DNA from: Gemmatimonadota bacterium
GTDB lineage: Bacteria > Gemmatimonadota > Gemmatimonadetes > Palauibacterales > KS3-K002
Assembly (NCBI GenBank): GCA_039588075.1
Contig: JBDHAL010000048.1
Span: 1-34,792, forward strand
Direction of reading: 5' to 3'
Length of the DNA stretch: 34,792 bases
Below, piece after piece: positions 1-29,922 of this stretch. Every line of letters starts with the position of its first letter. Position 1 is the first letter of the stretch. The translations under genes were made by a program, and so were the position numbers. Below the pieces are notes generated by a model that worked only from the letters and a program-made list of their open reading frames with translations, ran no database searches and was not told the origin of the DNA.

Positions 1-520
1 CGCCAAGACCGACGAGCTCACCGGCTGCCTGTCGCGACGCTACCTCATGGAGCGGCTGGAGAACGAGCTCGAGCGCGCCGCCCGCTACGAGCGACTGCTC
101 GGCGTCGTGATGTTCGATATCGACGACTTCAAGCGCCTGAACGACACGCACGGTCATACGACGGGCGACGCGGCGCTCCGCTCCATCGGCGAGGTGCTCC
201 GGCGCTCGCTGCGCACCGCCGACTTCGTCGGCCGCTACGGCGGCGACGAATTCCTGCTGGTGCTCCCGGAGACCAGCGCCAACGGCACGCACCAGCTGGC
301 CGAGCGCATCCGCAACGGCGTCAGTCGCCGCGAGTTCGAGCTACGAGGCGGCAAACTGAAGCTGACCATCAGCGGCGGCGTCGCCGGCTTCCCCGATGCC
401 GAGGTGGTGACCCCGGAAGACCTGATCGACCGGGCCGACCAGGCACTGTACCAGTCGAAGGCGGCGGGGCGGAACAAGGTGCTTTGCCATGGGGTCGATG
501 CGCCTGTCAAATCTGAGTAG
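1..520 (+). CDS. GGDEF-domain diguanylate cyclase, C-terminal fragment; the 5' end lies upstream of the window
   Basis: The frame is open from position 2: TDELTGCLSRRYLMERLENELERA... then RYGGDEFLLVLPETS, the GG(D/E)EF active-site motif. ...QALYQSKAAGRNKV is a typical GGDEF C-terminus. Stop codon at 518-520. Confidence 0.85.
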   Translation, partial: AKTDELTGCLSRRYLMERLENELERAARYERLLGVVMFDIDDFKRLNDTHGHTTGDAALRSIGEVLRRSLRTADFVGRYGGDEFLLVLPETSANGTHQLAERIRNGVSRREFELRGGKLKLTISGGVAGFPDAEVVTPEDLIDRADQALYQSKAAGRNKVLCHGVDAPVKSE

Positions 521-752
521 CTAGACATCGGGTCGAACATCGAACATCGTTCATCGAGCATCGAACGTCGATAGCCGCGGCGCTCCGCGCCTTCGACATC
601 AAACTTCCAACTTCGAACAACGGAAACATCGGCCATTGAACTGGTAGCCTCGATGTCCGATGTTCATCTATCGATGTTCGATGTTTCCGCCGTCGGGCAG
701 TATTCTCGAAGTTCGATGCTCGATGAACAATGTTCAATGTTCACTACGATAT
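521..752. repeat. Block of TCGAACATCG / CGATGTTCGA decamer repeats in both orientations, forming an imperfect palindrome between the GGDEF gene and the S58 peptidase gene
   Basis: At least 8 copies of (T)CGAACATCG or its reverse complement are visible, e.g. gtcgaacatcgaacatcgttcatcgagcatcgaacgtcg and, on the other arm, cgatgtccgatgttcatctatcgatgttcgatgtttcc. The block is AT-richer than its surroundings. Confidence 0.6.
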
Positions 753-1698
753 GAACATCAGGCACCCCCCGAACCAGACCCTCACCACGGTGCCGGGAAT
801 CTCCGTTGGCCACGCTTCCGACCACGAAGCCGCCACCGGCTGCACGGTCGTGCTCGGTCCGTTCCGCGCCGCCGTCGACGTTCGCGGCATGGCCAGCGGC
901 ACGCGCCAGTTCGATTCGCTGGCGACCAACCACGTGGCCGAGCGTGTCGACGCGCTGCTGCTGACCGGCGGCTCCGCCTACGGACTGGCCGCAGCGGACG
1001 GAGTTGCGGCGTGGCTGGAAGAGCGGGGGCGCGGGTTCGAGACCGACGTGGCCCGTGTGGCGATCGTGCCCAGCGCGGTGATCTTCGATCTGGGGACCGG
1101 GCGGGCGGACCGGCGGCCGGACCCGGAGATGGGGCGAGCCGCCTGCGAGGCGGCCGATACGGCGCCGGTGACGGAGGGGCGGGTCGGCGTGGGGACGGGG
1201 GCAACGGTTGGCAAGCTGCTGGGTGGCGACGGAGCGATGGCGGCGGGCCTGGGGAGTTACGCGACGCGGCTGGATGAGTACGCCGTGGCGGCGCTTGTGG
1301 TGGTGAACGCCTTCGGCGACGTGCTCGATGCGGCCGGCAACATCATCGCCGGCGCCCGGGACGCCGGCGGCTCGTTCGTCGATACGGCGGCCTACCTGCG
1401 GGAGCAGGGGCCGCCGCCGCGGTTCGCGGCCCGGGCGGGCACCAACACGACCCTCGCGGTGGTGGCCACTGACTACCCCCTGTTTCGAGCCGATCTGCAG
1501 GCCGTGGCCCGCCAGGCGATGAACGCCGTGGTTCGCCACACCGCTCCCGCCAACACCCAGTTCGACGGCGACCTGGTCTTCGCCTGCTCCAGCGGCGCCG
1601 ACCCCAGCGCGGTCGCGCCGGCGCACCTCCTGCGTGTCGGTCTGTGCGCCGAATGGGCGCTGGGCCGCGCCATAGAGCGTGCCGTCGGGGTCGGCTAG
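730..1698 (+). CDS. P1 (S58, DmpA/L-aminopeptidase-like) family peptidase; the start could be ATG 730 or ATG 751
   Basis: N-terminal NQTLTTVPGISVGHASD matches the family N-terminus (ITDVPGVRVGH). AGTNTTLAVVATDYPL resembles the DmpA autoprocessing/nucleophile motif (G|S/T-N-T-T). Confidence 0.75.
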   Translation: MFNVHYDMNIRHPPNQTLTTVPGISVGHASDHEAATGCTVVLGPFRAAVDVRGMASGTRQFDSLATNHVAERVDALLLTGGSAYGLAAADGVAAWLEERGRGFETDVARVAIVPSAVIFDLGTGRADRRPDPEMGRAACEAADTAPVTEGRVGVGTGATVGKLLGGDGAMAAGLGSYATRLDEYAVAALVVVNAFGDVLDAAGNIIAGARDAGGSFVDTAAYLREQGPPPRFAARAGTNTTLAVVATDYPLFRADLQAVARQAMNAVVRHTAPANTQFDGDLVFACSSGADPSAVAPAHLLRVGLCAEWALGRAIERAVGVG

Positions 1699-1775
1699 CC
1701 TAGCGATCTCCTTGTAGGGGCACCAGATTACGTGGTTGGGGTATTTTCGGGGGACCTGACATCCGGAGGAGATGC

Positions 1776-2516
1776 TTGCGGAAGGCTGAAACCCCGAGGG
1801 TTCGCGTGTTCTTCGACATAGACGGGACGCTGCTGCTCACCGATGGGGCCGGGCGCGTCGCGATCGCCGCCGCGCTGGAGGCGGTCTTCGGGACGAGCGG
1901 CCCGCTGGATGGCTATACCTTCCATGGCAAGACCGATCCGCAGATCGTGGTCGAGTTGATGGGGGCCGCCGGCCTCGACGAACGGGATGTCCGGGCGCGG
2001 CTGCCGGAGGTGTGGCCGGTCTATCTGGAGAGCCTGGAGCGCGGGCTGGAGGTTCGGCGCCGCGAGGGCCGGATCACGGTGCTGCCGGGGATCGCGGCCC
2101 TGCTGGCGGCGCTGGAGGAGAGGCGCGGGGTCTCGCTGGGCCTGTTGACCGGGAACATCGAGCCTGGCGCCAGGCTCAAGTTGGCCGCGGCCGGTGTGCC
2201 GTGGAAGTTCGACGTCGGTGGGTACGGTTCCGACTCCGAGCTACGCTCCGAGGTCGCCCGCACCGCGGTGTCGCGGTGCCGGGAGTCGGCGGGCGAGCCG
2301 GCGGAAGTTGTCGTCGTTGGAGATACGCCGGAGGACGTGGCCTGCGCCCGGGCGGTGAACGCCCGCGCCGTGGCGGTGGCGACGGGCCGGCACGGGGTGG
2401 CTGAGCTGGAGCAGGCGGGAGCGGATGCCGTGTTCGAGGATTTCAGCGACACTGAGGCGGCTCTGCACTGCATACTGTCGCTGGCGGGTGCGGCGGGGAA
2501 CGGCGGGGGGCGATGA
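1776..2516 (+). CDS. HAD-superfamily hydrolase (phosphoglycolate-phosphatase-like)
   Basis: TTG start at 1776, 6 nt after GGAGGA. Motif I is FFDIDGTLL (DxDGT). A C-terminal VVVGDTPEDV corresponds to motif IV (GD). The stop overlaps the next start (ATGA). Confidence 0.8.
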   Translation: MRKAETPRVRVFFDIDGTLLLTDGAGRVAIAAALEAVFGTSGPLDGYTFHGKTDPQIVVELMGAAGLDERDVRARLPEVWPVYLESLERGLEVRRREGRITVLPGIAALLAALEERRGVSLGLLTGNIEPGARLKLAAAGVPWKFDVGGYGSDSELRSEVARTAVSRCRESAGEPAEVVVVGDTPEDVACARAVNARAVAVATGRHGVAELEQAGADAVFEDFSDTEAALHCILSLAGAAGNGGGR

Positions 2517-3958
2517 GCTACGAGGGCAGCTTCGACGTTGTGATCGAGGGGGTCGGCGCCGAGCGCGGCGCCAAGGTGATGGCGGCCCGCGAGGGGCTCT
2601 ACATCAACAAGCAGCAGATTCCGTACTCGACTCTGTTGGGTGTGGCGCTGCGCGGCTCCATCTTGCTGGTCGTCGGGACCCAGGTGGCCCTCGCCTTGAG
2701 AGGCGAACACGAGGGCCTGGCGACCCTGGCGGCCGAGCTGAGGAATCGGGCCGACCTCGATCACCTGGCGCTCTCGGACCGCCAGGCGCTCGAGGGCGAG
2801 CGTGTCGTCTTCGCTACCCCGGTCGCCATGTCCGGCCTGGTCGAGATGGAGCGCTTCAAGGGCATGGCCCTGGCCGTCGTCACCGACTCGGCACTCCATG
2901 TCTTCGAGCGCGGCGGCCGCCACTTCCGCATCGCTTGGGACCGCGTCAACAAGGTCGACGTCACCAGGGCCAAGTTCGGTCGCCTGCTGCGAATCGGCAG
3001 CGGAGCCACGCAGCTCGAGTTCCTCTACCTGACCGACGCTCAGATCCAGACGATCCGCGGCCTGGCCTCGCGTCACTCGAGCGCCGTGCTCGGCGTCGCC
3101 GCCGAAAGCGCGCAATCGGCCGCGTCGGCGCCCGCTCCGGCTGCGGCCGCCGGCGCCGTGCCCGACGTCGGCCAGGTCGACGACCTGGCGCGCCGCTTCG
3201 TCATCCCCGAGTTCGAGGCCTCGCTCGGCGCCGTCGGCAGCGGCTCCGACCGGCCGCTCGGCGCCGCCATCGACAAGCTCCAGATGTCGTCGCTGTTGCC
3301 CGTCGGATTCCTCGAGGAACACCTTCGCGAGCTGCGCAACATCTACGACGGGTCGCTACTCAGGGCGAAGCGCGAGGCTGCCTCCGCCACGGAGCTCTAC
3401 ATTGCCGCCGACTCGCTCGAGGGCAAGAAGCTGTGGGAAGACACCCTCGAGGGTGTCGGCGTCATCGCAGACGCCTCGGTGCGCGCATTCGAGCGGCAGG
3501 CGCGCCGCGTCGCCGCGAACCGCCGCATCCCTTGGCGCAAGGCGCGCAAGCGGTTCATGCCGTCGCAGAAGGAGGCCGCCGCCCTCAAACAGAGGCTCAC
3601 CCGCGGCGTCTCGCAGATGGAAAAGACCCTGACCTCCGTGTCGCAGGCCGCCGCCCAGCTGCGGCCTGCCGGCCTGGCCGGCCACGACGAGCTCAAGATG
3701 GCCTACGACGGCTGGCAGGAGTCGCTGCGCGAGCTCGACCAGGCCTATGCCACCGGCTGGAACGGCCTGAGCCGCGAGGTGGTCGGCGTCTGGCAGGACG
3801 CTTTCCTCACCAAGCTCACCCGGCTCGGCGGCGAGCGCAGGCGGTTGCTGCCGCGACCGGTCAAGGTCGGGCTCTACTTTTTGGTGTTTATCATCGTGAT
3901 GTTCGTGGTGTACCTCTACCTCACGGACCAGTTGACGCAAATAATCCAGTTCGAGTGA
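2513..3958 (+). CDS. Hypothetical tail-anchored protein of 481 aa with a C-terminal transmembrane helix; function unknown
   Basis: Amino-acid composition is ordinary, unlike the Arg-rich alternative frames covering the same DNA. It ends with a single hydrophobic helix, LYFLVFIIVMFVVYLYLT. Its start is coupled to the HAD gene by an ATGA overlap. Confidence 0.65.
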   Translation: MSYEGSFDVVIEGVGAERGAKVMAAREGLYINKQQIPYSTLLGVALRGSILLVVGTQVALALRGEHEGLATLAAELRNRADLDHLALSDRQALEGERVVFATPVAMSGLVEMERFKGMALAVVTDSALHVFERGGRHFRIAWDRVNKVDVTRAKFGRLLRIGSGATQLEFLYLTDAQIQTIRGLASRHSSAVLGVAAESAQSAASAPAPAAAAGAVPDVGQVDDLARRFVIPEFEASLGAVGSGSDRPLGAAIDKLQMSSLLPVGFLEEHLRELRNIYDGSLLRAKREAASATELYIAADSLEGKKLWEDTLEGVGVIADASVRAFERQARRVAANRRIPWRKARKRFMPSQKEAAALKQRLTRGVSQMEKTLTSVSQAAAQLRPAGLAGHDELKMAYDGWQESLRELDQAYATGWNGLSREVVGVWQDAFLTKLTRLGGERRRLLPRPVKVGLYFLVFIIVMFVVYLYLTDQLTQIIQFE

Positions 3959-3990
3959 TCGGGTACACGAACCCAGGAGGTTGATGTCGA

Positions 3991-4672
3991 ATGGCTAGTT
4001 CACAAGGAAAGTTCTACGCCCTGCTTGGCGCGGTTCTCGTCGCCGGGGTGGCGCTGATCGGATACGTCGCCGTGAACAAGAACAGGCGAGCGGTAGCCGA
4101 TGCCGCCGAGACGGCGGCGGCGCTTCCCGCCATGCTCGCCGAGGGCGAGTTGGTCGGTGAAGACGTTGGGGTCGCCATGGGGCCGGAAGACGCGCCCGTG
4201 ATCATCCACGAGTACGCCGATTACCAGTGCCCCTACTGCGGTATGGTCGCCACCCTGACCCTGCCGCAGATCTTCGAGGAATACGTGCAGACCGGAAAGG
4301 CCCGCTTCGTCTTCTTCGATTACCCGCTCAATCCCGGCGCCTCCGAGATCGGTGCCGAGGCCGCCCGCTGTGCCATCGACCAGGACGCCTTCTGGGCGAT
4401 GCAGAAGGTGCTGTTCGGCCGCATGCAGGAGTGGGGGACCAAGCCGCGAGTACGCCGACGCCCTGGGGCTCGACGGCGGCGCGCTGCTCGAGTGCATGGA
4501 CTCGCACAAGTACCGCGATGTAGTGATGGCGAGCCAGCTGCGGGCGCGGCAGCTCGGCCTCAACAGCACGCCGACCTTCTTCATCAACGGACAGCTCGTG
4601 CCGGGGGCCAAGAGCTACGACCAGATGAAGGCGATCATCGACGAGGAGCTGGCCAAGGTTGAATCGCCGTAG
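3991..4672 (+). CDS. DsbA-like thioredoxin-fold thiol:disulfide oxidoreductase; the frame is interrupted by an apparent 1-nt frameshift near 4432-4441 (pseudogene or homopolymer error)
   Basis: N-terminal signal anchor, then DYQCPYCGMV (CPYC active site). The DsbA-like C-terminus EYADALGLDGG...NSTPTFFINGQLVPGAKSYDQMKAIIDEELAKV continues in the +1 frame (track ORF 4352..4672). The junction lies at gtgggggacc; deleting one G restores ...QEWGPSREYADALGLD. RBS AGGAGG lies 10 nt upstream of ATG 3991. Confidence 0.75.
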
Positions 4673-5123
4673 AGCTATCGCCGTACTCGCCCTGCTGGGC
4701 GTTCTCGACTCGGCCTACCTGCTGCTGGCCAAGCTCGGATACATCGGCGGCCTCGCCTGCGGGATCTCGCACGGCTGCGACACCGTCAATGCTTCCGTCT
4801 ACTCGCAGTTCCTGGGGCTGCCGGTGGCAGGTATCGGACTGCTCGGCTACCTGGTGCTGCTCGCCCTCGCGATAGTCGGCACGCAGCCGCACTACGTCGA
4901 GGATCGGCGAATCGACAAGTTGATCGCTACGCTCTCAGGTTTTGCGGTCGCCTTCACGCTATATCTGACGTACGCCGAGCTGTTCATCCTGCGGGCCGTT
5001 TGCCAGTGGTGCGTCATATCACAGATAGCGATACTGGCCATATTCGGCCTGGCGGTGTGGGGGCTTTTGCAGGCGGGGAGAAAGGATTCGACATCGGTCA
5101 GCGGTCAGTCGGGGCTCGACTAG
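4659..5123 (+). CDS. Vitamin K epoxide reductase (VKOR) family membrane protein, a DsbB-like partner for DsbA
   Basis: Loop cysteine pair CGISHGC followed by S.Y..FLGLPVAGIGLLGY. TYA motif and CQWC (CxxC) sit in a transmembrane helix. The start overlaps the DsbA stop. The last ~12 codons are encoded by palindromic repeat copy A. Confidence 0.8.
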   Translation: MNRRRAIAVLALLGVLDSAYLLLAKLGYIGGLACGISHGCDTVNASVYSQFLGLPVAGIGLLGYLVLLALAIVGTQPHYVEDRRIDKLIATLSGFAVAFTLYLTYAELFILRAVCQWCVISQIAILAIFGLAVWGLLQAGRKDSTSVSGQSGLD

Positions 5124-5264
5124 CGGCGAAAGAGGCAACTATCAACCTCCCACCGCGGCTGCGCGACATCGGACGGTTGTAGGACGTAGGACGTGGGGCG
5201 TTGGACGTCGAGCGACGCCTCTTTCGCCCGCCGTCGAGCCCCGGCTGACCGCTGTCCGATGTCC
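5089..5264. repeat. Palindromic MITE-like element, copy A, about 176 bp
   Basis: ...gacatcggtcagcggtcagtcggggctcgactagcggcgaaagaggc...gcctctttcgcccgccgtcgagccccggctgaccgctgtccgatgtcc. The left and right arms are reverse complements (stem about 45 bp). It is nearly identical to copy B at 8121-8289. Confidence 0.85.
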
Positions 5265-5292
5265 AAAAAAAAAGAGCGGGCAAGCCCGCTCT
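5265..5292 (-). terminator. Rho-independent terminator for the minus-strand sigma factor gene; the hairpin may also act bidirectionally
   Basis: aaaaaaaaagagcgggcaagcccgctctctt: on the minus strand this reads as a GC hairpin (gagcgggc...gcccgctc) followed by a T9 run, immediately downstream of the stop at 5302. Confidence 0.7.
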
Positions 5293-5301
5293 CTTCTATC
5301 A

Positions 5302-6168
5302 TCAGGAAGGCGCCCAAAATCCTTCAAGCGCCTGCCCGTCAGGCGATTGGCGTAGCTTCTCGAAGGCACGATTGCGAATCTGCCGGATCCGCTCCCGCGT
5401 CACCCCCAACAACGACCCGATCTCCTCCAGCGTCATCTCTTCGCCGTCGTCCAGCCCGTAGTAGAGGACGAGGATCTTGCGCTCGCGCTCCGTCAGGTAC
5501 TTTCGGAACATCTCCTGGAGAAAGTGCCGCCGCGCCTGGAACTCGACCTCGTCCTGGATGTCGTCGGTCTCCATGCCGGAGAACCGCTCGCCGAACGAGG
5601 CGCTGTCCCGGTCGGTCCGATCCAGCGGCGCGTCGAGGCTCAGCTCGGCCGAGGCCACGCGACGCAGCGCCCGGATCGTCTGCACCGGCTCGCCCATGCG
5701 GTCTGCGATCTCGCGATCCGTCGGCGTCCGGCCCAGCTGCTGCGTCAGCGCCGTCTCCGTACGCGACAGCTTCACCAGGTTCGAGTTCTGGTTCAGCGGG
5801 ATCCGTACCGACCGCGTCTGTTCCGCCAGCGCCTGCAGCACCGTCTGCCGGATCCACCAGACCGCGTAGGAGATGAACTTCACTCCCTTATCGGGATCGA
5901 ATTTCTTGACCGCCTTGAGCAGGCCCTCGTTTCCGATGCAGACCAGCTCGGCCAGGTTCAGGCCTCGACCCTGATACTTCTTAACGTACGAGATCACGAA
6001 TCGAAGGTTCGCCGTCACCAGCCGCTCGGCTGACTTGCGGTCGCCGGCACGTGCCTTACGGGCGATCTCTCGCTCCGTCGCGGCGTTTTCGATTAGGGGG
6101 TACTTCTCGACGTCGTGAAGGTACTGGTCGAAGGAGTCTAAGGCCTTTGAGCTGAAGAACATGCCCAC
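5302..6168 (-). CDS. RNA polymerase sigma-70 family factor (group 2/3, RpoS/RpoH-like size, 288 aa)
   Basis: Region 1.2 YLHDVEKYPLI. Region 2 ERLVTANLRFVISYVKKYQGRGLNLAELVCIGNEGLLKAVKKFDPDKGVKFISYAVWWIRQ. Region 4 MTLEEIGSLLGVTRERIRQIRNRAFEKLR. Confidence 0.9.
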   Translation of the reverse strand: MGMFFSSKALDSFDQYLHDVEKYPLIENAATEREIARKARAGDRKSAERLVTANLRFVISYVKKYQGRGLNLAELVCIGNEGLLKAVKKFDPDKGVKFISYAVWWIRQTVLQALAEQTRSVRIPLNQNSNLVKLSRTETALTQQLGRTPTDREIADRMGEPVQTIRALRRVASAELSLDAPLDRTDRDSASFGERFSGMETDDIQDEVEFQARRHFLQEMFRKYLTERERKILVLYYGLDDGEEMTLEEIGSLLGVTRERIRQIRNRAFEKLRQSPDGQALEGFWAPS

Positions 6169-6490
6169 TTCCGCTCTGACTCAGGGTTAAGTATCTAACG
6201 ACTAAAAAAGCGAGATCCGATGTACGGTCCCGCCCGAGATGTACCGATACGTCCGGGCGCCTCCCTCCGCGCCGACCAGCCCGCCCCTAGCGATACCAGT
6301 GGCGGAAACGGACACCCTCAAGACGTAGCTTTGCAAGACCGTCAAGTATAAAACGCTACCCCCGATTCGTAAAGCCCGAAGAAAGTGCGAATCGCATGGC
6401 CATGCGGACAACCGGCTCGGTTCTCGGCTCCTGTTTTGACAACATACTATTCGGTACCCCGGCCAGTTCACCGGATCCCGCCCGCTCCGA

Positions 6491-7456
6491 TCAGTCGGAG
6501 TCCCGCAAGGCTGCCAGAATGGCGGGCCCCGAAGGAGAGTCGGGCCCCAGGCAGAGGGCGTAGGGCGCCGCCGCTTCGACCTCGACGGTCTCCACGATGG
6601 CCCCGTGGTCGGCGTCGCCGGAGGCGCGTCCGAGCGGGATGAGCCGTGTACGGAAGCCGCGTTTGTGGGCGAAGAGGGGCATGCGCTCGGAAGCGACGAC
6701 GAGGCGGCCTCGGAGGTAGGGCCAGCCGGGACCGAGGCGGGCCAGGGTGACGCGGGCGGAACGCGCGGCGCCGATGGAATCGCCCAGCTCCCGTTCGATG
6801 AGGCGGCGCGTTGCGCCGCGGAGGGCGTCGGGCGACTCCCAGCGGTGGAAGCGGCCCGCCCGGGTCAGGGCGGCATAGATGGCCGAAAGGAGCAGGAAAG
6901 CTGCGCCCCAGAGTCTCGGAGTCCAGGGCAACGGGGCCAGGACGAGGACGGCGGCGATGGAGGCGGCGAAGGGCGGGGCCGTCCATGCGAGGCCTGCGAG
7001 GCCGGCCGCCGTGAGGATCTGGATGGCGGTGAGACCGTGGAGCGCCGGGACCGGTCCTGCGGTTCGCCGGGCCGTGCGGACCGCCATGACCGAGACGTGG
7101 ACCAGCGCTGCCAAGCCGAGCGCCGCCAGCGCTCCGAACCACTGGATGTCCCTGGGCCCGGCGGCCAGGACGGCCGAAGCCAGAAGCGCCGCGGCCAGCG
7201 GGCGCGCCAGGGTGTGCAGTGCCGTCCAGACCAGGTCGCCGATTCGATAGCGACCGCAGGCCAGGTCGACCAGGGCCAGGGCGATGAGGGTGCTCCAGAC
7301 CAGCGGGACGGCCAGGCCCGAGATCGGTACGGGTAGCTCGATGAGCCCCAGGTAGGCCAGGATCCCCGGCACGGCCAGCGCGGCGTACAAACTGAGGCCG
7401 ATAGCGACGGCCATCGCGGCAAGGGTCAGGGCCGTTTCCAGCAAGTCGGGGCTCAC
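6491..7456 (-). CDS. Polytopic membrane protein of unknown function; probable GTG start at 7456 with a GGAGA RBS
   Basis: About 8 Ala/Leu-rich hydrophobic segments (LTLAAMAVAIGLSLYAALAVPGILAYLGL...). Only 2 Cys, so not DsbB/VKOR-like. The long Arg-rich N-extension back to 7546 is probably not translated. Confidence 0.55.
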   Translation of the reverse strand: MSPDLLETALTLAAMAVAIGLSLYAALAVPGILAYLGLIELPVPISGLAVPLVWSTLIALALVDLACGRYRIGDLVWTALHTLARPLAAALLASAVLAAGPRDIQWFGALAALGLAALVHVSVMAVRTARRTAGPVPALHGLTAIQILTAAGLAGLAWTAPPFAASIAAVLVLAPLPWTPRLWGAAFLLLSAIYAALTRAGRFHRWESPDALRGATRRLIERELGDSIGAARSARVTLARLGPGWPYLRGRLVVASERMPLFAHKRGFRTRLIPLGRASGDADHGAIVETVEVEAAAPYALCLGPDSPSGPAILAALRDSD

Positions 7457-7466
7457 TTTGTCTCCG

Positions 7467-8066
7467 TTAGCCGCCGCCGGCCTCGAGCGCCGCCAGTATC
7501 TGCCTCCGAAGCTCCTCGTAGGAGGCGGCCCCGGTGATCGATTCACCGCCCAGCACCACCGTCGGCGTCCCCGTCGCCCCGAAACCCAGCGCCTCGCGCA
7601 GGTCGGTCTCGATCACCCGGTGCGTCTCCTGCGAGCCCATGCAGTCGGCGAACCGCTCAGGATCCATGCCCAGGTTCGCCGCATAATCGTACCACAGAGC
7701 CTCCGGCACTTCCGTGCCGGCCCATTCCGGCTGCCTAACGTAGATGTAGTCGTGAAACGACCAGAACCGGCCCGCCTGGCCCGCGCAGTGTGCGGCCTTC
7801 GCCGCCGCTACCGCGTTCTTGTGCAGCCCGGCGAGCGGAAAGTACACGTAGCGTATCCTCAGCAGCCCCGGATCCACGAACTCCGCGATGACCGCCGGCA
7901 GCGCCACCAGCGCCAGGTTGCGGCAGTAGGGACACTCGAAATCAGAGTAGATTGACATCTCGACGGGAGCGTCGGGCGAGCCGAGGATGCGGTAATCCGG
8001 ATCCTGTGCCGTTACTTCTGAACTTAGAAGTAATGCTGCTGTGAGCGTTAAGAGCTTTATGTGCAT
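7467..8066 (-). CDS. DsbA-like thioredoxin-fold oxidoreductase, paralogue 2, with a signal peptide; alternative start at 8081
   Basis: MHIKLLTLTAALLLSSEVTAQ signal peptide. SDFECPYCRNLALVALP carries a CPYC motif. The C-terminal half aligns with DsbA-like copy 1 (FWSFHDY..EW.GTEVPE..YA..LG.D...GTPTVVLGG). The track ORF's N-terminal extension runs through repeat B and is rejected. Confidence 0.75.
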   Translation of the reverse strand: MHIKLLTLTAALLLSSEVTAQDPDYRILGSPDAPVEMSIYSDFECPYCRNLALVALPAVIAEFVDPGLLRIRYVYFPLAGLHKNAVAAAKAAHCAGQAGRFWSFHDYIYVRQPEWAGTEVPEALWYDYAANLGMDPERFADCMGSQETHRVIETDLREALGFGATGTPTVVLGGESITGAASYEELRRQILAALEAGGG

Positions 8067-8120
8067 GCGGTGGTGTAGCATTCTGGCGGTTTTTGTGCAA
8101 GTGCTTGATTTGGGGGATTT

Positions 8121-8289
8121 GGACATCGGACAGCGGTCAGCCGGGGCTCGACTAGCGGCGGAGGAGGAAGCTATCAACTGCCGACTGCGGACGCGTGACA
8201 TCGGACGATCGTACGATGTAGGTCGTTGGGCGTCGAGCGACGCCTCCTTCGCCCGCCGTCGAGCCCCGGCTGACCGCTGTCCGATGTCC
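8121..8289. repeat. Palindromic MITE-like element, copy B, about 169 bp
   Basis: ggacatcggacagcggtcagccggggctcgactagcggcg...cgccgtcgagccccggctgaccgctgtccgatgtcc. Same orientation and subfamily as copy A. Confidence 0.85.
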
Positions 8290-8295
8290 AAATTC

Positions 8296-8829
8296 TCACT
8301 TCCTCGACCGGCCCCGCATCCCCCGCACCCGCTCCAGGTCATAATCCCTCACGACCGCCGGCGGCCACCCACCCGCTTCAACCTTCATGATTAACTGCGA
8401 AAGCGTTTCCCGCGCTCGAGCCGCCGCCACTTCATCAATCCATCCATTGTCCACCGCCTCATCAAACTCGTCCTGATCCAGCACGCGATGGTTCCCCTCC
8501 AGGTCGACCCAGAGATCCAGGTAGAGGTCGTACATCGTCCAGGTACTGCGATCGAGATCCGGGGGCGCTATGAGGTTTACGTAGTACCCGGTATGCGTCC
8601 CGTCGCTCAGGTGGAAGCGGCCCACATCGTACCATTCGCCGGGGAAGACGAACCATACGATCGGGGAGCCGGGCTCGTAGATCAGCCGATCGGCGATGTA
8701 GAGCTCGGAAGTCAGTGGAGTGTTCTCGTGCAGGGTGACCTTGCAATCGTCTTGGTCGACGACGAGGTCCTGAACGAAGATGTCCATCCGGTTGGGCGGT
8801 CGGTGGTAGTGGATTTCGATTTCGGGCAT
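8296..8829 (-). CDS. DUF402-family protein (FomD-like nucleotide-phosphatase fold)
   Basis: YDLYLDLWVDLEGNHRVLDQDEFDEAVDNGWI matches the conserved Y.DL.LD......D.DE core of DUF402. The assignment is made from motif memory only. Confidence 0.6.
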   Translation of the reverse strand: MPEIEIHYHRPPNRMDIFVQDLVVDQDDCKVTLHENTPLTSELYIADRLIYEPGSPIVWFVFPGEWYDVGRFHLSDGTHTGYYVNLIAPPDLDRSTWTMYDLYLDLWVDLEGNHRVLDQDEFDEAVDNGWIDEVAAARARETLSQLIMKVEAGGWPPAVVRDYDLERVRGMRGRSRK

Positions 8830-8850
8830 GAGGCGCGAGCGGCGCTCGGG

Positions 8851-10977
8851 TCAGGAGGGGTAGAACGACGAGCGCTCGGTCAGCCCCGTCGCGGGCTCGA
8901 GTCGCGCCGATACGCTGCTGGCGTAGTGGCGCAGGCGATCGGCCACGTGGTCCAGGCCGAGGTGGTCGGCGTAGCGCAGCAGGCCGCCGCGGAAGGGCGG
9001 GAAGCCGGTGCCCATGATCATGGCGACGTCGAGGTTCTCCGGTGAGCTGACGACCCGATCATCCAGCGTGCGCGCCGCCTCGTTGATCATGGCCAGGACC
9101 ATGCGCTCCTCCGCTTCGCCTGATCCGGGCGGCTCTCCTTCGGACGCCTCGCGAAGCACGGCCTCGATCTCGCTGTCCGTGCCTTCCGCTTTGCCATCGC
9201 TGTAGCGGTAGAAACCGCGGCCGCCTTTGCGGCCGCTGACGCCGGTGGCCAGGACGGTCCCGACGATGGGAGCCGGCTGAAAGCGCTCGCCGAACCCCGA
9301 AATCATTGTCTTGCTCACCTCGGCGACGACGTCGAGTCCGATCTCGTCCAGCAGCCGCGCCGGCCCTACCGGCATGCCGAAGCGGGTCATGACGCGGTCC
9401 AGCTCCTTGACGGTCATCCCTTCCTGCAGCAGGTACCCCGCTTCGGTGAGATAGGCGGCGAGCACGCGGTTGACCACGAAGCCGGGCGAGTCTTTGACGA
9501 TGATGGGCGTCTTGCCCAGGCGAACGGCGATCTCGAACGCGGTGGCTAGGGCGTCGTCCGACGTGGCCGCGCCGCGCACCACCTCGACCAGGGGCATGCG
9601 GAAGGGGGGGTTGAAGAAGTGAAGCCCGCAGAGGCGATCGGGCCTCTCCAGCTCCTCCTGCAGCTTGGAGATAGACAGCGCCGATGTGTTGGTGGCGATC
9701 ACCGCGTCGGGGCGCAGGAAATCCTCCAGCGCGCTGATCACCATCTTCTTCACGTCGAGCCGCTCTACCACCGCCTCCACCACGGCGTCCACGGTGTCGA
9801 ATCCGTCGTAGCTCACCGCCCCGCGAAGACAATCGACACGAGCCTGCAGGTCTTCCGAAGACCAGCCGGACCGCTCGCCCGCTTTCTCCAACAGCTCGCG
9901 CGCACGCTCGATCCCGGCCTCGACCCGCTCGGGGTCCACGTCGACGATCTTGACGGGCACGTTCTGGTAGGCGAACAGCTCGGCGATCCCGGCCCCCATC
10001 ACGCCGGCCCCGACGACCGCGGCGCGCCGCACCGTCGCCGCCTCACCGTCGGGCACTCGCTTGCGGGCGCCCTCGGTAAGCTGGAAGACGGCGATCAGGT
10101 TCTTGGACTCGGTCGTGACCGCCAGCCGCCCGAAGGCTTCCGCCTCCTGCTCGTACGCCTTTTCCGGCGCGACGGAGAGGCTGCTGACGACGACCTCGAC
10201 GGCGGCCGGTAGCGCCGGGTAGTGACCCCTGGTGCGGGCGAGCACGGCCCGGCGCGTCAACTTCTTGATGATCCAGCGGGCGGCCGGACCGTCCTCGAGC
10301 AGTCGCGCCACGGTGGAGCGAAGATGTCGCCGCAACGGCGTCTTCCCGCGGGCGAAACCGGCGGCGAGAGCGGCAACCTCGTCGTCGAAAGCCTCGGCGG
10401 ACAGGATGCGGTCGACAAGCCCGAGCTCGCGGGCGCGGTCGGAGTTGATCTGCCTTCCAGAGAGGATCAGGTCGAGTGCGGCCCGGAGCCCGATCAGGCG
10501 CGGCGTTCTCACGGTGCCACCCAATCCCGGGACGAAGCCCAGTCGGGTCTCGGGGAAGCCGAAACGCGTCTGTGCGTGATCGCTGGCGACCCGGTAGTCG
10601 CAGGCGAGCGCCAGCTCTAGGCCGCCGCCCACACACACACCGTTGATCGCCACCAGCGTCGGCACCGACAGCCGCTCGAGCCGCTTGAAGATGGCCTGCC
10701 CGCGGCGCGAGATCTCGCTCGCCGCCGCCGCCGACTCCAACCCGGCCAGCTGATCGATGTCGGCGCCCGCGATGAAGTTGCCGGGCTTGGCGCTTTGCAC
10801 CAGCAACGCCCGGACTTCTCCACGGCCGGCCGCCACCTCGACCGACGCCAGGTGCGACTCCAGACGGACCATGACCGGATGGGTCAGCAGGTTCACCTTC
10901 GAGTCGGGGCGATCGAAGGTGATCGTCGCTAGACCGTCCGCGATTTCGAATCGGAGGTCCGGAACCTGCTCGGTCAT
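8851..10977 (-). CDS. fadJ: Fatty-acid oxidation multifunctional protein: enoyl-CoA hydratase plus 3-hydroxyacyl-CoA dehydrogenase (FadJ/FadB type)
   Basis: Crotonase region ...NFIAGADIDQL...GGGLELALACD. NAD-binding motif VVGAGVMGAGIA. C-terminal 3HCDH region. The start is set at MTEQVPDLRF (ATG 10977, GGGAG RBS); the track's 60-aa upstream extension is rejected. Confidence 0.9.
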   Translation of the reverse strand: MTEQVPDLRFEIADGLATITFDRPDSKVNLLTHPVMVRLESHLASVEVAAGRGEVRALLVQSAKPGNFIAGADIDQLAGLESAAAASEISRRGQAIFKRLERLSVPTLVAINGVCVGGGLELALACDYRVASDHAQTRFGFPETRLGFVPGLGGTVRTPRLIGLRAALDLILSGRQINSDRARELGLVDRILSAEAFDDEVAALAAGFARGKTPLRRHLRSTVARLLEDGPAARWIIKKLTRRAVLARTRGHYPALPAAVEVVVSSLSVAPEKAYEQEAEAFGRLAVTTESKNLIAVFQLTEGARKRVPDGEAATVRRAAVVGAGVMGAGIAELFAYQNVPVKIVDVDPERVEAGIERARELLEKAGERSGWSSEDLQARVDCLRGAVSYDGFDTVDAVVEAVVERLDVKKMVISALEDFLRPDAVIATNTSALSISKLQEELERPDRLCGLHFFNPPFRMPLVEVVRGAATSDDALATAFEIAVRLGKTPIIVKDSPGFVVNRVLAAYLTEAGYLLQEGMTVKELDRVMTRFGMPVGPARLLDEIGLDVVAEVSKTMISGFGERFQPAPIVGTVLATGVSGRKGGRGFYRYSDGKAEGTDSEIEAVLREASEGEPPGSGEAEERMVLAMINEAARTLDDRVVSSPENLDVAMIMGTGFPPFRGGLLRYADHLGLDHVADRLRHYASSVSARLEPATGLTERSSFYPS

Positions 10978-11033
10978 GGCTGACTCCCTGGGAACGCGCG
11001 GCGCCCTCTGCGCGGCGCCGCGCCCCTGCACAA

Positions 11034-11780
11034 CTAGAACGTACTCCGAACCTCTGCGTTCGAGTCGTTCAACACCAATGTGTCCACGCCGCCGCCCGAC
11101 GCGTAGAGGATGTTCCAGTATAGCTCCTCGAACGGCAACGGGTAGCGCGTGTAGATCCACCAGTCACCACGCGGCACCGCGAAGTACGCCCAGCCGCCCG
11201 CGTCCGTCGTGTCCACCAGCTCCTCGCCCTGTGCTTCCGCCAGGCTGTCCACTATCTCGACGTACCTCTCGAACGCCACGTCCTCCCACGACGCCAATAC
11301 CGCGTTGAACGAGTCCGCTCGCGCCGCGTACGTGCTCTGCAGCGCCGTGAACTCGTCGAAGTACCGCGTCTTTTCCCCGTCCAGCTGCCTCACTGCGTCC
11401 TCAAGGTTCTCGAACCGCCGAAACAGTCGAAAGTACTCGTCGCTCGCCGTGTTCATCCCTTGCATCCGCTCGCTCAGATCCCGCTGCTCCGAGTACGCTT
11501 CGTTCCACGCCGCCTCCGCCGTACGCCACTGCTCCTGAGCCGCCGCCACCGAATCCCGCATCGCGATCAGATCCGCCGGCGGCTCCGGCTCCGCCTCCGA
11601 CGCCGTCGCCGCCATCGCCGCGAACAGCGAGTCTCGGTCATACCGCAGCATCTTCACCACCAGCTGCGCTCGGCCCCCATCCTCTCCGTCCGCCGCCGCC
11701 CGTAACGACAGCTGGGTCGATCTGCTGCACGCACTCACCGTCACCAACGCGCCAAGACACAGGACCCAATGCTTGTTCAT
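11034..11780 (-). CDS. Hypothetical lipoprotein
   Basis: Signal peptide with lipobox MNKHWVLCLGALVTVSAC|S. The protein is acidic and helical, and I recognise no family. Confidence 0.55.
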   Translation of the reverse strand: MNKHWVLCLGALVTVSACSRSTQLSLRAAADGEDGGRAQLVVKMLRYDRDSLFAAMAATASEAEPEPPADLIAMRDSVAAAQEQWRTAEAAWNEAYSEQRDLSERMQGMNTASDEYFRLFRRFENLEDAVRQLDGEKTRYFDEFTALQSTYAARADSFNAVLASWEDVAFERYVEIVDSLAEAQGEELVDTTDAGGWAYFAVPRGDWWIYTRYPLPFEELYWNILYASGGGVDTLVLNDSNAEVRSTF

Positions 11781-11958
11781 TGAGCTCTCCCAGATTAAAG
11801 TACCTGTCCGCCGAATCCAGAAAACCTAGGATCGACGCCCTTAGTTTTCAAGCGCCGCGATACCGTCGCCGCGAGCCGCCGCCTCCGTGCAGCCGCTCGC
11901 AACCGGCCCGGCCGGCGCCGCAGACAGTGGTGTGATAGACTACAGAATACCAAACCCG

Positions 11959-12528
11959 ATGTCCCACGCCTGGTCCGGGTCACGAGCGCTGGCGGCGATT
12001 GCGGCGGCGTCGCTGTTGGGCGGCTGCGGCTATGGGAGGATCCAGGAGCTGGACGAGGCGGTGCTGGAGGCGCGCTCGGAGATCGAGGTGCAGCTGCAGC
12101 GTCGATCGGCGCTGGTGCCGAACCTGCTGGAGACGGTGCAGAGCTACGGAGCGGTGGCCGAGGAGGTGATCGCGGGGGTGGCGGATGCCCGGGCGGGGCT
12201 TGTGGGGGCGGTGCGGTCGGGGCAGCTGCCGGGGATGGAGACGGCGAGCGCGGAGCTGTCGGGGGCGTTGGAGGAACTGCTGACGGTGGTGAGCCGGACT
12301 CCGGCCCTGGACGACGACCGCGGTTTCCGGTTGCTGCGGTCGCAGTTGGAGCAGACGGAAGAGATGATCATTCAGGCGGGCCGCAGCTACAACGAGGCGG
12401 TGCGCCGTTACAACGACTTCATAGAGCAGTTTCCTCAGATGGTAACGGCCAAGGTGATTGGGGCGGAAGCGCTCGAGTTGTTCGAGCCCTGGGATGGGCC
12501 GGCTTCACTGTCCTCGGCCGACGAGTAG
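11959..12528 (+). CDS. lemA: LemA-family protein, membrane- or lipid-anchored
   Basis: Start at MSHAWSGSRALAAIAAASLLGGCG. The LemA core SYNEAVRRYNDFIEQFPQMVTAKVIG matches the conserved RYN...FP...A motif. Confidence 0.8.
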   Translation: MSHAWSGSRALAAIAAASLLGGCGYGRIQELDEAVLEARSEIEVQLQRRSALVPNLLETVQSYGAVAEEVIAGVADARAGLVGAVRSGQLPGMETASAELSGALEELLTVVSRTPALDDDRGFRLLRSQLEQTEEMIIQAGRSYNEAVRRYNDFIEQFPQMVTAKVIGAEALELFEPWDGPASLSSADE

Positions 12529-12533
12529 GGCGT

Positions 12534-12776
12534 TCAGAGCAGGATTCTCTTCACCAATTCCAGCCCGATCAACACGATCAGCGGCGAGAGATCGATGCCC
12601 GCCGAGACCGGAAAAGCCTTCCGCACGGGCTCCAGCACCGGGTCGGTCAGCTTGTTCAGAAGGTCGATCGCCTGGTTCGACGTGGTGGGTGAAGTGAACC
12701 AGGAGAAGATCGCTCGCAGGATTATTAGGCCCTCGTAGAGGGTGATGAGTGCGACCAGCAAACCGGCGATTCCCAA
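12534..12776 (-). CDS. yggT: YggT (Ycf19) family membrane protein of about 80 aa; TTG start at 12776 after a GAGGA RBS
   Basis: LGIAGLLVALITLYEGLIILRAIFSWF...LTDPVLEPVRKAFPVSAGIDLSPLIVLIGLELV is the canonical YggT pattern (iflsW...P.l.P.R...P..gg.DlSPl). The track's Thr/Val-rich N-extension is encoded by the GACAAC repeat and is rejected. Confidence 0.7.
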   Translation of the reverse strand: MGIAGLLVALITLYEGLIILRAIFSWFTSPTTSNQAIDLLNKLTDPVLEPVRKAFPVSAGIDLSPLIVLIGLELVKRILL

Positions 12777-12860
12777 GGTTTTATCCTCGCTTGCGTCGGG
12801 GGTGGTTGGTTTTGGTCGGTGGACACTACGTCCGCGGGTTGCCGTGTGTTTCACTGTATC

Positions 12861-12980
12861 GACGACGACAACGACAACGACAACGATAAGACAACGACAG
12901 CGAGAAACGAGAAATCTCGCCGCCGGCCATGCCTTTTTCTCGTTTCTCGCTGTCGTTGTCGTTGTCGTTACCGTTGTCGT
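12861..12980. repeat. Long perfect hairpin built from GAC/AAC trinucleotide repeats, located in the divergent yggT / hemQ-Rieske intergenic region
   Basis: Left arm: gacgacgacaacgacaacgacaacgataagacaacgacagcgagaaacgagaaa. Loop: tctcgccgccggccatgcc. Right arm: tttctcgtttctcgctgtcgttgtcgttgtcgttaccgttgtcgtc. The inner 25 bp are perfectly complementary. GC content here is well below the genome average. Confidence 0.75.
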
Positions 12981-13092
12981 CAGTAGCACCAGAGAACCGC
13001 AACAAGCCGAAATCGGTTCTAACTAGATGGGAGAAAGCGCCGGTTGCCAGCAGCGGGCCGCCCTTGGGCAAGAACTAAGAGAAGGAGCAGCA

Positions 13093-14136
13093 ATGTCGGG
13101 CAAGGAAGAGAAGCGTCAGCTCGTCCGCTACCTGTTCTTCAAGCTGGACCCGGCGTGGCGCCGGCTGAATCTGGACAAGCAGATCGACCAGAAGATCGAA
13201 CTGGGCGACACGATCCGGGGCTTTCAGGCGAAGTCGCTTCTGCGGTCGTACAGCCTGATGGGTACGCGTGGCGAGGTCGATTTCATGCTGTGGCAGGCGA
13301 CGGAGGATCTGGAGACGCTGCAGGCGCTGGAGACGTCGATCTTCTCCACGCGGCTCGGGGCCTATTTTTCGACCCCGTACAGCTACCTGGCGATGACCAA
13401 GCGGTCGATCTACGACTTTCCCGATGACCCGGAGCATGACGACCGAATCGCCGTTCGGCCGCAGGATTCCCGGTACCTGTTTCTGTACCCGTTTACCAAG
13501 ACCCGCCCCTGGTACAAGCTATCGCACGAGCAGCGCCAGGAGATGATGAGCGAGCACGTGCGCGTCGGCCGCAAGTATCCCGACATCCGGATCAATACCG
13601 CCTACTCCTTCGGCCTCGACGACCAGGAGTTCATGGTCGGCTTCGAGGGCGACGACCCGGGCGCCTTCCTCGACCTGGTGATGGAGCTGCGCGAGAGCGA
13701 CGCTTCGGCCTACACGCTCGAGGACACGCCCATTTTCACCTGCATCCAGATGTCGCTCTGGGACGTCCTCGACTCGCTGGGCGGCGCCTCCGTGTCCGAG
13801 CAGGCGCGCGCCGCCGAGCGCGACGCCGACGGCTTCGTGCTCGCCGCGTCCGTGGCCGAGCTGCCGCCCGGCGCCTCGAAGCGCGTCTATAACGGCGCCG
13901 ACGCCATCGCCCTGTTCAACGTGGATGGGACGTTTTACGCCGTCAGCGACCGCTGCACCCACGGCCGCGCTTCTCTGAGCGAGGGCAGCGTGGACGCGAA
14001 GGAGTGCGTGCTCAACTGTCCGTGGCATGGAGGCAAGTTCGATATCAAGAACGGCGAACCGGCCGGCGGGCCGGTGCGGGCGGCGATCAAGACGTATCGC
14101 GTGAAGGTCGAGGGGGAGAATGTGTTGGTTGGTTGA
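13093..14136 (+). CDS. hemQ: Coproheme decarboxylase (HemQ/ChdC, chlorite-dismutase family) fused to a C-terminal Rieske [2Fe-2S] domain
   Basis: AAGGAG RBS before ATG 13093. HemQ hallmarks: VRYLFFKLDPAW, VDFMLWQATE, YLFLYPFTKTRPWYKLSHEQRQEMMSEHVRVGRKY, YSFGLDDQEFMVGFEGDDP, DLVMELRESDASAYTLEDTPIFTC. After residue ~250, Rieske box I CTHGRASL and box II CPWHGGKF (CxH...CxxH, 17-aa spacing). Confidence 0.85.
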   Translation: MSGKEEKRQLVRYLFFKLDPAWRRLNLDKQIDQKIELGDTIRGFQAKSLLRSYSLMGTRGEVDFMLWQATEDLETLQALETSIFSTRLGAYFSTPYSYLAMTKRSIYDFPDDPEHDDRIAVRPQDSRYLFLYPFTKTRPWYKLSHEQRQEMMSEHVRVGRKYPDIRINTAYSFGLDDQEFMVGFEGDDPGAFLDLVMELRESDASAYTLEDTPIFTCIQMSLWDVLDSLGGASVSEQARAAERDADGFVLAASVAELPPGASKRVYNGADAIALFNVDGTFYAVSDRCTHGRASLSEGSVDAKECVLNCPWHGGKFDIKNGEPAGGPVRAAIKTYRVKVEGENVLVG

Positions 14137-14140
14137 TTAG

Positions 14141-14230
14141 GTGAACATCGAACATTGAGAATACGCCCCGATGTTGAACGTCGGACCTCGAGGCCGGGAC
14201 GTTGAACGTCGAGGCGTGCTTCGATGTTCA
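14141..14230. repeat. Palindromic element with GAACATCGAA arms, related to the 521-752 decamer block
   Basis: gtgaacatcgaacattgag...cgatgttgaacgtcg...gacgttgaacgtcgagg...cttcgatgttcac. The outer 12-bp arms are perfect reverse complements. Confidence 0.6.
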
Positions 14231-14262
14231 CAAAAAAAGAGCGGGCAATGCCCGCTCTTTTC
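14231..14262 (-). terminator. Bidirectional intrinsic terminator, strong on the minus strand, for the M23 peptidase gene; also closes the hemQ-Rieske gene
   Basis: caaaaaaagagcgggcaatgcccgctcttttcc: a GC hairpin (agagcgggc/gcccgctct) flanked by A7 on one side and T4 on the other. The hairpin is nearly identical to the one at 5265-5292. Confidence 0.7.
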
Positions 14263-14286
14263 CTCATCGGCTGGTGTTATATATGG

Positions 14287-15264: not shown

Positions 15265-15778
15265 CGGTCTCGTCCAGTGACAGTTAAATCCAGGCAGTTC
15301 AACCCGCCTGGTTTTTCAACGGCTTACCGATGGAGGAGGGGCAGGCGCCACGTTAACGCCAAGGGGCAGGACTGTCAAGCCACCGCACCAGCAGATAGAG
15401 TTTGCAAGGTCTGTTCCCACCTTACCTACAGCCCATAAGCTCATATACTACAACGACTTCGGGTTTTCTCTCCCCCTGCCAATCACCCCAAAAATCGGTA
15501 ATAATTACCCATCTTTTAGGCATTTTTGACCGCCTCTGGCCCTTCCACGCCGCGTTACTGCCGGTGATCGGTAACCGGTAATCGGTGATCGGTAACCCCT
15601 TTTCCCCCACCGGTTACACGGGATCTCCACTACCTGTACGGGTGACCGAATAGGCCAGCACGATCGGGGGTACTCTTAAGTAGTAGAAGGCTGATCGCTG
15701 AAGTTGCGCCAAGCCTCGGACACCGGCAGAATAGACCCGTCCCACCCAATCGCGCGGTCCGCCACCAGGAGAAGGCTC

Positions 15779-16456: not shown

Positions 16457-16466
16457 GGATAGAATC

Positions 16467-17738: not shown

Positions 17739-17750
17739 GAAGGACTAGTT

Positions 17751-17919
17751 GGACATCGGTCAGCGGTCAGCCGTCGCTCGACGCCCAACGAAAGAGGCGG
17801 CTGTCAACGCCCGACTTCCGATTGTCCGACGTCCGATTTCCCCGGACGTTGGGTGTCGGGAGTCGATAGTCGCCTCTTTCGTTAAGCATCGAGCGACGGC
17901 TGACCGCTGACCGATGTCC
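17751..17919. repeat. Palindromic MITE-like element, copy C, about 169 bp
   Basis: ggacatcggtcagcggtcagccgtcgctcgacgcccaacgaaagaggcggctgtcaacgcccgac...gtcgatagtcgcctctttcgttaagcatcgagcgacggctgaccgctgaccgatgtcc. The 20-bp terminal inverted repeats are perfect. Confidence 0.85.
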
Positions 17920-17922
17920 TAT

Positions 17923-19226: not shown

Positions 19227-19253
19227 CGTCTAAAAACTTCCCAGGTTAGAAGT

Positions 19254-29848: not shown

Positions 29849-29922
<74 letters not shown>

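Follow-up and report, generated by a model that had tools for sequence, protein, structure and literature searches.

What becomes of a disulfide-bond-forming gene pair when one of its genes changes reading frame part-way, and is the DNA around such a pair a special locus or an ordinary part of the chromosome? These questions are raised by a 34,792-nt contig of a Gemmatimonadota bacterium (JBDHAL010000048.1; this whole stretch of DNA is hereafter called the window), in which a DsbA-like gene with a broken frame (dsbA1) and the gene of a VKOR homologue (vkor) lie on the plus strand, and three genes, for a sigma-70 family factor, a DUF4126 membrane protein and another DsbA-like protein (gene dsbA2), lie on the minus strand. 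We found that dsbA1 is genuinely broken in this sequence, by a 20-nt deletion, and that the DsbA1-VKOR pair is an ordinary disulfide-bond-forming gene pair common to a whole Gemmatimonadota group. The best explanation overall, to which we assign a probability of roughly 80%, is that this is a stretch of chromosome conserved within a Gemmatimonadota clade, neither special nor mobile.

The DsbA1-VKOR pair in its chromosomal setting

The start of dsbA1 at position 3991 and its CPYC motif at 4228-4239 are as given in the preliminary description of this DNA, and the match of its product to the Pfam family Thioredoxin_4 is divided between two frames: profile positions 5-97 are matched in frame 1 (E=6e-22, 79 bits) and positions 108-165 in frame 2 (E=1.8e-12, 48 bits, ending at 4672). 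The Pfam cut-off for this family is 23.2 bits, and both DsbA-like proteins of the window exceed it when aligned with the profile. In an almost identical sibling contig (L001; JGI 3300041086 Ga0452216_048667 = NCBI JBDHHF010000176.1) the gene is intact and encodes a 233-aa protein, P0001. The 5' part in the window (3991-4443, codons 1-151) is 100% identical to residues 1-151 of P0001, and the out-of-frame 3' part (4444-4672) is 100% identical to residues 159-233. The CPYC cysteines are invariant in an alignment of 84 orthologues, and a second conserved cysteine pair is formed by C127, in the 5' part, and C175, in the 3' part, which also holds the cis-Pro loop (T200-P201) and the C-terminal strands and helix. 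CPYC and the cis-Pro loop are therefore not in one polypeptide in the window, whereas they are joined in P0001. As read from the sequence, the hydrophobic N-terminal segment (residues ~9-27), a candidate membrane anchor, has no cleavage motif and an atypical charge distribution. The closest named relatives are Gemmatimonadota metagenome-assembled genomes, and the closest solved structures of DsbA1 are those of Corynebacterium diphtheriae 'DsbA'/TsdA (4PWO, 4PWP and 7UNN; E~1e-19), with BdbD (3EU3) alongside; similarity to the solved Mycobacterium tuberculosis DsbA (4K6X, 4IHU and 4JR4) is weak (E~3e-4).

The neighbouring gene (4659-5123, plus strand, TTG start) encodes a 154-aa protein with a four-helix core. 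The preliminary description had made its identification as a VKOR homologue depend on a match to VKOR profiles, and the protein matched PF07884 over profile positions 2-133 of 134 (E=6e-25, 88.4 bits; cut-off, 27.5 bits). Five residues (C34, C40, S46, C115 and C118, the last two within the motif C115-Q-W-C118 and S46 as the conserved Ser/Thr of the loop) are invariant in five orthologues. In an alignment with Synechococcus VKOR (3KP9/4NV5; E=3e-15), the protein covers residues 20-145 of the latter, and C34/C40 and C115/C118 are in register with C50/C56 and C130/C133 of that enzyme; it carries no fused thioredoxin domain and ends ~20 residues past the CQWC helix. An identical 154-aa VKOR is called in L001. 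The last ~12 vkor codons, ending in DSTSVSGQSGLD and the stop codon, lie inside repeat copy A (5087-5123), a palindromic element that we return to below, and the 3' end of vkor in one related locus (L004) also runs into a palindrome related to this one. Judging from these sequences, the palindromic element has rewritten the variable C-terminal tail of VKOR.

We found the DsbA1 and VKOR genes adjacent in all 14 of the related loci that extend that far. Their overlap measures 4 nt in L002, L004 and L006; in the window it is 14 nt if the true dsbA1 frame, which stops at 4670-4672, is followed. The coupling of a DsbA-like gene to a VKOR homologue was rightly described, and the stand-alone VKOR arrangement is one that replaces DsbB in actinobacteria. 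In the window, the open reading frame (ORF) that runs on from frame 1 instead terminates with the TGA at 4660-4662, which shares bases with the vkor TTG at 4659 (TTGA). The vkor gene itself is untouched by the deletion, and the dsbA1 frameshift need not be polar on it: coupling could survive the lesion because the shifted frame, by chance, ends in TTGA, mimicking the ATGA overlap of the relatives. The order DsbA1-VKOR and, on the opposite strand, sigma-DUF4126-DsbA2-DUF402-FadB-like gene was found again in nine other distinct Gemmatimonadota loci, in which the neighbouring proteins are roughly 50-70% identical to those of the window, and in several of the relatives synteny reaches upstream from gyrA onward. 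Only in CP070823.1 (L002), a complete Gemmatimonadota genome, is dsbA2 absent at the locus, with the DUF4126 gene directly followed by the DUF402 gene (10319-11908).

We propose that DsbA1, when intact, would be tethered to the membrane and oxidise exported proteins as a thiol oxidase of the DsbA type, equipped with CPYC, a cis-Pro loop and a further, structural pair of cysteines, and that VKOR would re-oxidise it through the loop cysteines C34/C40 and the CQWC centre and hand the electrons to a membrane quinone. In Actinomyces oris, VKOR re-oxidises MdbA with menaquinone, and the VKOR of M. tuberculosis substitutes for DsbB in Escherichia coli (PMC5478893). VKORs of Gemmatimonadetes without a fused thioredoxin domain have also been described (PMC4555120). 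Like MdbA/VKOR and Rv2969c/Rv2968c of M. tuberculosis, the pair in the window combines a membrane-tethered DsbA-type oxidase with an adjacent stand-alone VKOR; as in those pairs, its VKOR has four catalytic cysteines, and its DsbA-like protein contains a second pair of cysteines with a structural role. It differs from them in its diderm Gemmatimonadota host and in its active site, which is CPYC rather than CPHC; sequence similarity to the solved M. tuberculosis DsbA is weak, and the MdbA entry 6BO0 was matched only by DsbA2. The VKOR core also aligns with that of the Synechococcus VKOR-thioredoxin fusion (3KP9, 4NV2 and 4NV5), both cysteine pairs being in register, but the thioredoxin-like partner is a fused C-terminal domain there and a separate DsbA-like gene here. 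As in E. coli DsbA/DsbB, a periplasmic CXXC oxidase would be recycled by a membrane protein that has two pairs of cysteines and is linked to quinone; by sequence family, however, VKOR is not a DsbB homologue, and no DsbB gene is present within the window.

The frame break in dsbA1

To locate the lesion, we compared the window with its siblings. Over positions 1-5167 the window is 99.4% identical to L001, from which it differs by 11 single-nucleotide polymorphisms (SNPs) and one indel, the absence of CGCAATCCCAACCGCCAGAT after position 4443. This 20-nt gap, between 4443 and 4444, shifts the frame by +1. The stretch that it affects is bounded by W148 and Y161, which are separated by exactly 12 residues in 84/84 orthologues, and is itself conserved, with R152 present in 79/84 and P154 in 74/84 of them. 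The deletion removes conserved residues and leaves the last 75 codons, those of C175 and T200-P201 included, out of frame. The remaining frame-1 product, of 223 aa, should be inactive, because the frame shift cuts off the last third of the protein together with the essential cis-Pro loop. The junction (GACCAAG/CCGCGAG) shows only 1 nt of microhomology, and we therefore suggest no mechanism for the deletion. A repeat-mediated deletion was considered and, given this junction, dropped.

The preliminary description had placed the frame switch inside the G-run of gtgggggacc and had proposed that one G fewer would give an intact protein. Dropping one G at 4433-4437 does open an uninterrupted ORF of 226 aa, as would be expected if a sequencing error or slippage had added a G to a G5 homopolymer. 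However, the run reads GGGGC in the sibling, owing to a synonymous glycine SNP at 4437 (GGC to GGG) 7 nt upstream of the junction, and the sibling has the 20 extra nucleotides 6 nt further downstream. The repaired protein, whose top match is P0001, is 7 residues shorter than P0001 and than every orthologue, has 5 residues between W148 and Y161 where all orthologues have 12, and has R152 and P154 swapped out. We consider a surplus G very improbable, and since the lesion is a 20-nt deletion and not a +1 change in the G-run, the slippery homopolymer drops out of the three causes that had been offered, while sequencing or assembly error and a decaying paralogue stay live. Still less credible is that programmed +1 ribosomal frameshifting or another form of recoding yields full-length DsbA1. 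Both halves of the gene are perfectly preserved and the shifted ORF stays open as far as the vkor start, which speaks for recoding, but the 84 orthologues and the 99.4% identical sibling all encode full-length single proteins in one frame, the shifted product would still miss 7 conserved residues, and long out-of-frame ORFs are expected at 65% GC.

With these explanations set aside, the lesion is either a young pseudogene or an assembly fault, and we lean towards a genuine strain-level deletion. A second sibling contig from the same sample as L001 (L127; 29,711 nt) is 99.9% identical to window positions 5129-18018, with 9 SNPs and one 48-nt indel that lies inside another intergenic palindrome. 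Against both siblings together, 12 out of 18 coding SNPs are synonymous, a pattern of a distinct haplotype rather than of noise; the window is therefore a genuine, slightly different haplotype and not a noisy copy, which makes a real strain-level deletion plausible. In our judgement, a clean 20-nt loss in unique, non-repetitive coding sequence, with microhomology of just 1 nt, would also be an atypical error for a short-read assembler. The competing explanation, to which we give appreciably less credence but which we take seriously, is that the gap is an assembly or consensus artefact and that dsbA1 is intact in the organism, with the same length as the 233-aa gene of the sibling. The part of dsbA1 downstream of the gap is without further decay (0 differences over 723 nt), and the other indel between the window and a sibling is again a loss from the window, within a palindrome, a kind of sequence that assemblers handle poorly; both observations would fit an artefact.

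It is important to point out several further observations that weigh against our reading of the lesion and of the pair. The deletion is known from one assembly only, and the only SNP in 1.2 kb stands 7 nt from the junction; this is compatible with a local error, and the SNP could mark either one complex real mutation or a local assembly glitch. The junction pattern, exact or gapped, was unmatched in metagenome contigs, among which the sibling contig itself was also not recovered. Protein-guided scans of metagenome and genome contigs gave relatives that were at best 63-66% identical and showed no junction, and an exact look-up of the 223-aa DsbA1 product returned no record; the same kind of look-up for VKOR brought back no contig other than the sibling (JBDHHF010000176.1). 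As to the pair, the DsbA1 anchor is more positive after its hydrophobic segment than before it, unlike the textbook signature of an N-in protein, and we only infer the export and outward orientation of DsbA1. The mechanism outlined above is likewise carried over from actinobacterial MdbA/VKOR and M. tuberculosis DsbA/VKOR, and any use of VKOR by DsbA2 would be speculation.

Directly upstream of dsbA1, also in the relatives, lies a gene for a 481-aa protein with a C-terminal hydrophobic helix (2513-3958, plus strand) that matched nothing in Pfam or NCBIfam. The gene shares 4 nt with the HAD-hydrolase gene before it, and because of this overlap and its conserved adjacency to dsbA1 it is probably in the same operon as its neighbours. 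This gene holds 7 out of the 11 SNPs that separate the window from L001.

DsbA2, the DUF4126 protein and the sigma factor

The second DsbA-like gene, dsbA2 (7467-8066, minus strand, 199 aa), lies on the strand opposite to dsbA1 and directly upstream of the membrane protein gene, as first described. Its product matched Thioredoxin_4 with E=6e-28 (98.6 bits), has a classic, cleavable-looking signal peptide as read from its N-terminal sequence (MHIKLLTLTAALLLSSEVTAQ), and contains CPYC cysteines that are invariant in an alignment of 4 orthologues, two further conserved cysteines that form a pair (C94/C142), and P168 as its cis-Pro. The exact product is on record as P0212, under the name 'protein-disulfide isomerase'. 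DsbA2 is 30% identical to DsbA1, and its closest structures are again those of C. diphtheriae 'DsbA'/TsdA and BdbD (E~1e-15), with the MdbA entry 6BO0 at E=1.5e-4. The two paralogues of the window have the Thioredoxin_4 type, a membrane tether and a CPxC motif lacking histidine in common with C. diphtheriae TsdA and Bacillus subtilis BdbD; identity is only ~30%, and TsdA is not encoded with VKOR in C. diphtheriae, while the partner of BdbD is the DsbB-like BdbC. A second oxidoreductase, TsdA, can make up for the loss of the main one (PMC9974433), and this back-up role is the one that we suggest for DsbA2: intact and secreted, it would be the obvious candidate to cover the loss of DsbA1. Because DsbA1 is broken in the window and DsbA2 is absent from CP070823.1, comparison of these loci suggests that the two paralogues are individually dispensable and hints that they are redundant.

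The gene downstream of dsbA2 (6491-7456, minus strand) has a GTG start, with GGAG 6 nt upstream, and encodes a 321-aa protein for which a search of Pfam at E<=1 returned DUF4126 alone and a search of NCBIfam returned no match. The AlphaFold2 model (pLDDT 91.6) consists of a helical membrane domain (residues ~1-200) and a PH-like C-terminal domain of seven strands plus a helix (residues ~230-318). A Foldseek search of the model against the PDB gave nothing significant, and the literature on DUF4126 function is limited to two incidental mentions. All source-named homologues with the DUF4126-PH architecture (76 matches in all) are from Gemmatimonadota, and the architecture seems, by sequence, to be restricted to this clade. 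The preliminary description had seen in this protein an eight-transmembrane partner of DsbA2 with two cysteines. A conserved neighbour of DsbA2 it is: the two genes stand side by side in 8 out of 9 related loci, overlapping by 4 nt in L004 and separated in the window by a 10-nt spacer that contains GGAG. A conserved cysteine pair it does not have, since in 40 homologues only C302 is conserved (39/40), within the PYALCLGP motif of the PH-like domain, and the window's other cysteine is not.

This adjacency and tight spacing would suit another DsbA/oxidase pair of a novel kind, organised like DsbA/DsbB or DsbA/VKOR. We regard such a pair as improbable: the single conserved cysteine stands in the PH-like tail and no conserved pair exists, no DsbB-, VKOR- or DsbD-type match was found in Pfam or in PDB structure searches, and in one genome (CP070823.1) the DUF4126 gene is also present without dsbA2. 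The DUF4126 protein is therefore not a redox partner in the style of DsbB or VKOR. A different and doubtful idea, which we raise only tentatively, is that DsbA2 and the DUF4126-PH protein form a new kind of functional module of two genes, in which a secreted thiol oxidoreductase works with, or is sensed by, a multi-helix membrane protein free of cysteines, the PH-like domain facing the cytoplasm and the module standing directly upstream of an RpoD/SigA-like gene with a structured leader. If true, the module would connect the redox state of the envelope with the cell interior by a route other than thiols, and would take over upon DsbA1 loss, as in this contig.

The sigma gene (5302-6162, minus strand, ATG at 6162) encodes a 286-aa protein in which Pfam recognizes regions 1.2, 2, 3 and 4, region 1.1 being absent. 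It had been called an alternative sigma factor, a label that we consider doubtful. The best NCBIfam matches are RpoD/RpoS models, with RpoD and RpoD_Cterm at E~1e-67, all of them below the NCBIfam cut-offs (229 bits against 572 for RpoD). At JGI and NCBI the identical 286-aa protein goes by the name 'RNA polymerase primary sigma factor' or 'RpoD/SigA', and the protein is 93-97% identical across genomes whose neighbouring proteins share 50-70%. A primary sigma factor without region 1.1 is known from Bacteroides (Vingadassalom et al. 2005, 2007, as cited in PMC12632263). Together, the RpoD/RpoS matches, the annotation as primary, the degree of conservation and this precedent suggest that the factor, which is RpoD/SigA-like, is probably primary rather than alternative. 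The likeness to Bacteroidetes sigma-A as portrayed there is one of domain content (regions 1.2-4, no region 1.1) and of the annotation of homologues as primary. The Bacteroides primary sigma factor is similar in length to the 286-aa factor of the window; both phyla, Gemmatimonadota and Bacteroidota, are assigned to the FCB group, close to one another.

Both ends of the sigma gene carry structured elements. Right after its stop codon, at 5265-5291 on the minus strand, stands a hairpin (gagcggg-caag-cccgctc) followed by T9 that resembles an intrinsic terminator; it was read by eye and is unlisted by a consensus scanner, and an equivalent hairpin and T-run follow the sigma gene in L004 and L007. 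Upstream of the gene, within 6203-6373 on the minus strand, we observed a conserved promoter-like site (TTTACG-17-TATACT, 6373-6345) and a leader of ~137 nt (6339-6203) that consists of a long imperfect hairpin, a GC-rich terminator hairpin and a U-run, and ends ~40 nt before the ATG. A covariance model (R1) found the leader upstream of sigma in 13 related loci, 11 of them distinct. In its alignment, 85.8% of cells are paired, against 41-49% when the partners are slid, and 8 pairs are changed on both sides, which gives modest covariation support. A search of Rfam at E<=10 gave no match on the strand of the leader (6100-6520) and one chance match on the other strand. The element may be an attenuator-type leader or a small RNA.

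Dispersed palindromes and wider meaning

The segment that holds the sigma, DUF4126 and DsbA2 genes is flanked by two copies of a repeat: copy A (5087-5267), a near-perfect palindrome of ~180 nt between the convergent vkor and sigma genes, and copy B (8117-8293), of the same palindromic family, between the DUF402 gene and dsbA2. The two are 81-93% identical over 83-124 nt, far beyond chance. They belong to a family of four copies in the window, the others lying at 17746-17924 and 19043-19242, all of which fold as near-perfect ~180-nt hairpins with z-scores from -10.9 to -17.8 (copy A, -120.8 kcal/mol, z=-10.9; copy B, -122.5 kcal/mol, z=-12.2) and have arms made of the short tandem motifs CAGCGGT/CAGCCGG and GACAGCC. 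Both sibling contigs terminate inside copy A, and copy B is present in L127. In BLAST searches with the four copies, relatives of the repeat turned up in the sibling contigs and in L004/L005 but nowhere else, in part at different intergenic positions, and the B site of L004, L006 and L007 holds no palindromic inverted repeat. In an Rfam search of the whole window at gathering thresholds, only tRNA was matched and the repeats were not. We conclude that repeats A and B are copies of a family of dispersed palindromic intergenic elements of the REP/MITE kind: like REP/BIME, ERIC and Correia-type MITEs, they are dispersed intergenic hairpins, with four copies in 35 kb and sites that vary between relatives, and unlike these families they have no sequence match in Rfam and have arms of short tandem motifs.

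The preliminary description had noted that copies A and B bracket the sigma/DUF4126/DsbA2 segment. They do flank it, in direct orientation, 2.85 kb apart and with the high mutual identity given above, so that one could think of a cassette that is mobile or was inserted recently and has direct repeats as its ends. We hold this to be very unlikely. As two of four copies, A and B lend the bracketing no cassette meaning, because the same gene order is found in relatives that lack the repeats: it is kept at ~60% protein identity, and by BLAST most of these relatives are without the repeat family. Inside the segment there is no transposase or integrase, only the sigma, DUF4126 and DsbA2 genes, and its composition is unremarkable. 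The other two copies in the window lie on either side of an unrelated gene at 17.7-19.2 kb, and L004/L005 have further copies at intergenic sites elsewhere. Among the window ORFs that were read, within a window not annotated in full, there was also no transposase.

Further long intergenic palindromes were seen at 535-742, 12853-12974 and 15560-15640 of the window and at 2389-2436 of L127, with arms of other short tandem motifs (GAACATC..., GACAACGAC... and GGTAATC/GGTGATC...). At 15630/15631 the window is without a 48-nt left arm that is present in L127. Such hairpins seem to be common throughout this genome. At a distance from the locus, the 3' 46 nt of a tRNA-Ile(GAT) gene (29849-29922) are repeated exactly at 33926-33971, ~4 kb downstream, in the manner of the att sites that flank an integrated element. 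The segment between these repeats has a lower GC content (0.56-0.61) and, judging from a reading of its ORF translations, appears to encode a PAS histidine kinase and two proteins that resemble response regulators; among its ORFs of at least 90 aa there was no integrase.

A caution follows from dsbA1 for the handling of such sequences: a frame break beside a homopolymer is not to be 'repaired' by eye, and here it was a sibling assembly that revealed the 20-nt deletion. The DUF4126-PH architecture and the structured leader of the sigma gene are by-products of this analysis and are perhaps more interesting than the finding on dsbA1 and vkor. For the biology of the group, our findings add a well-documented DsbA/VKOR example of disulfide-bond formation in an uncultured Gemmatimonadota clade, in which either DsbA paralogue can be missing in individual genomes.

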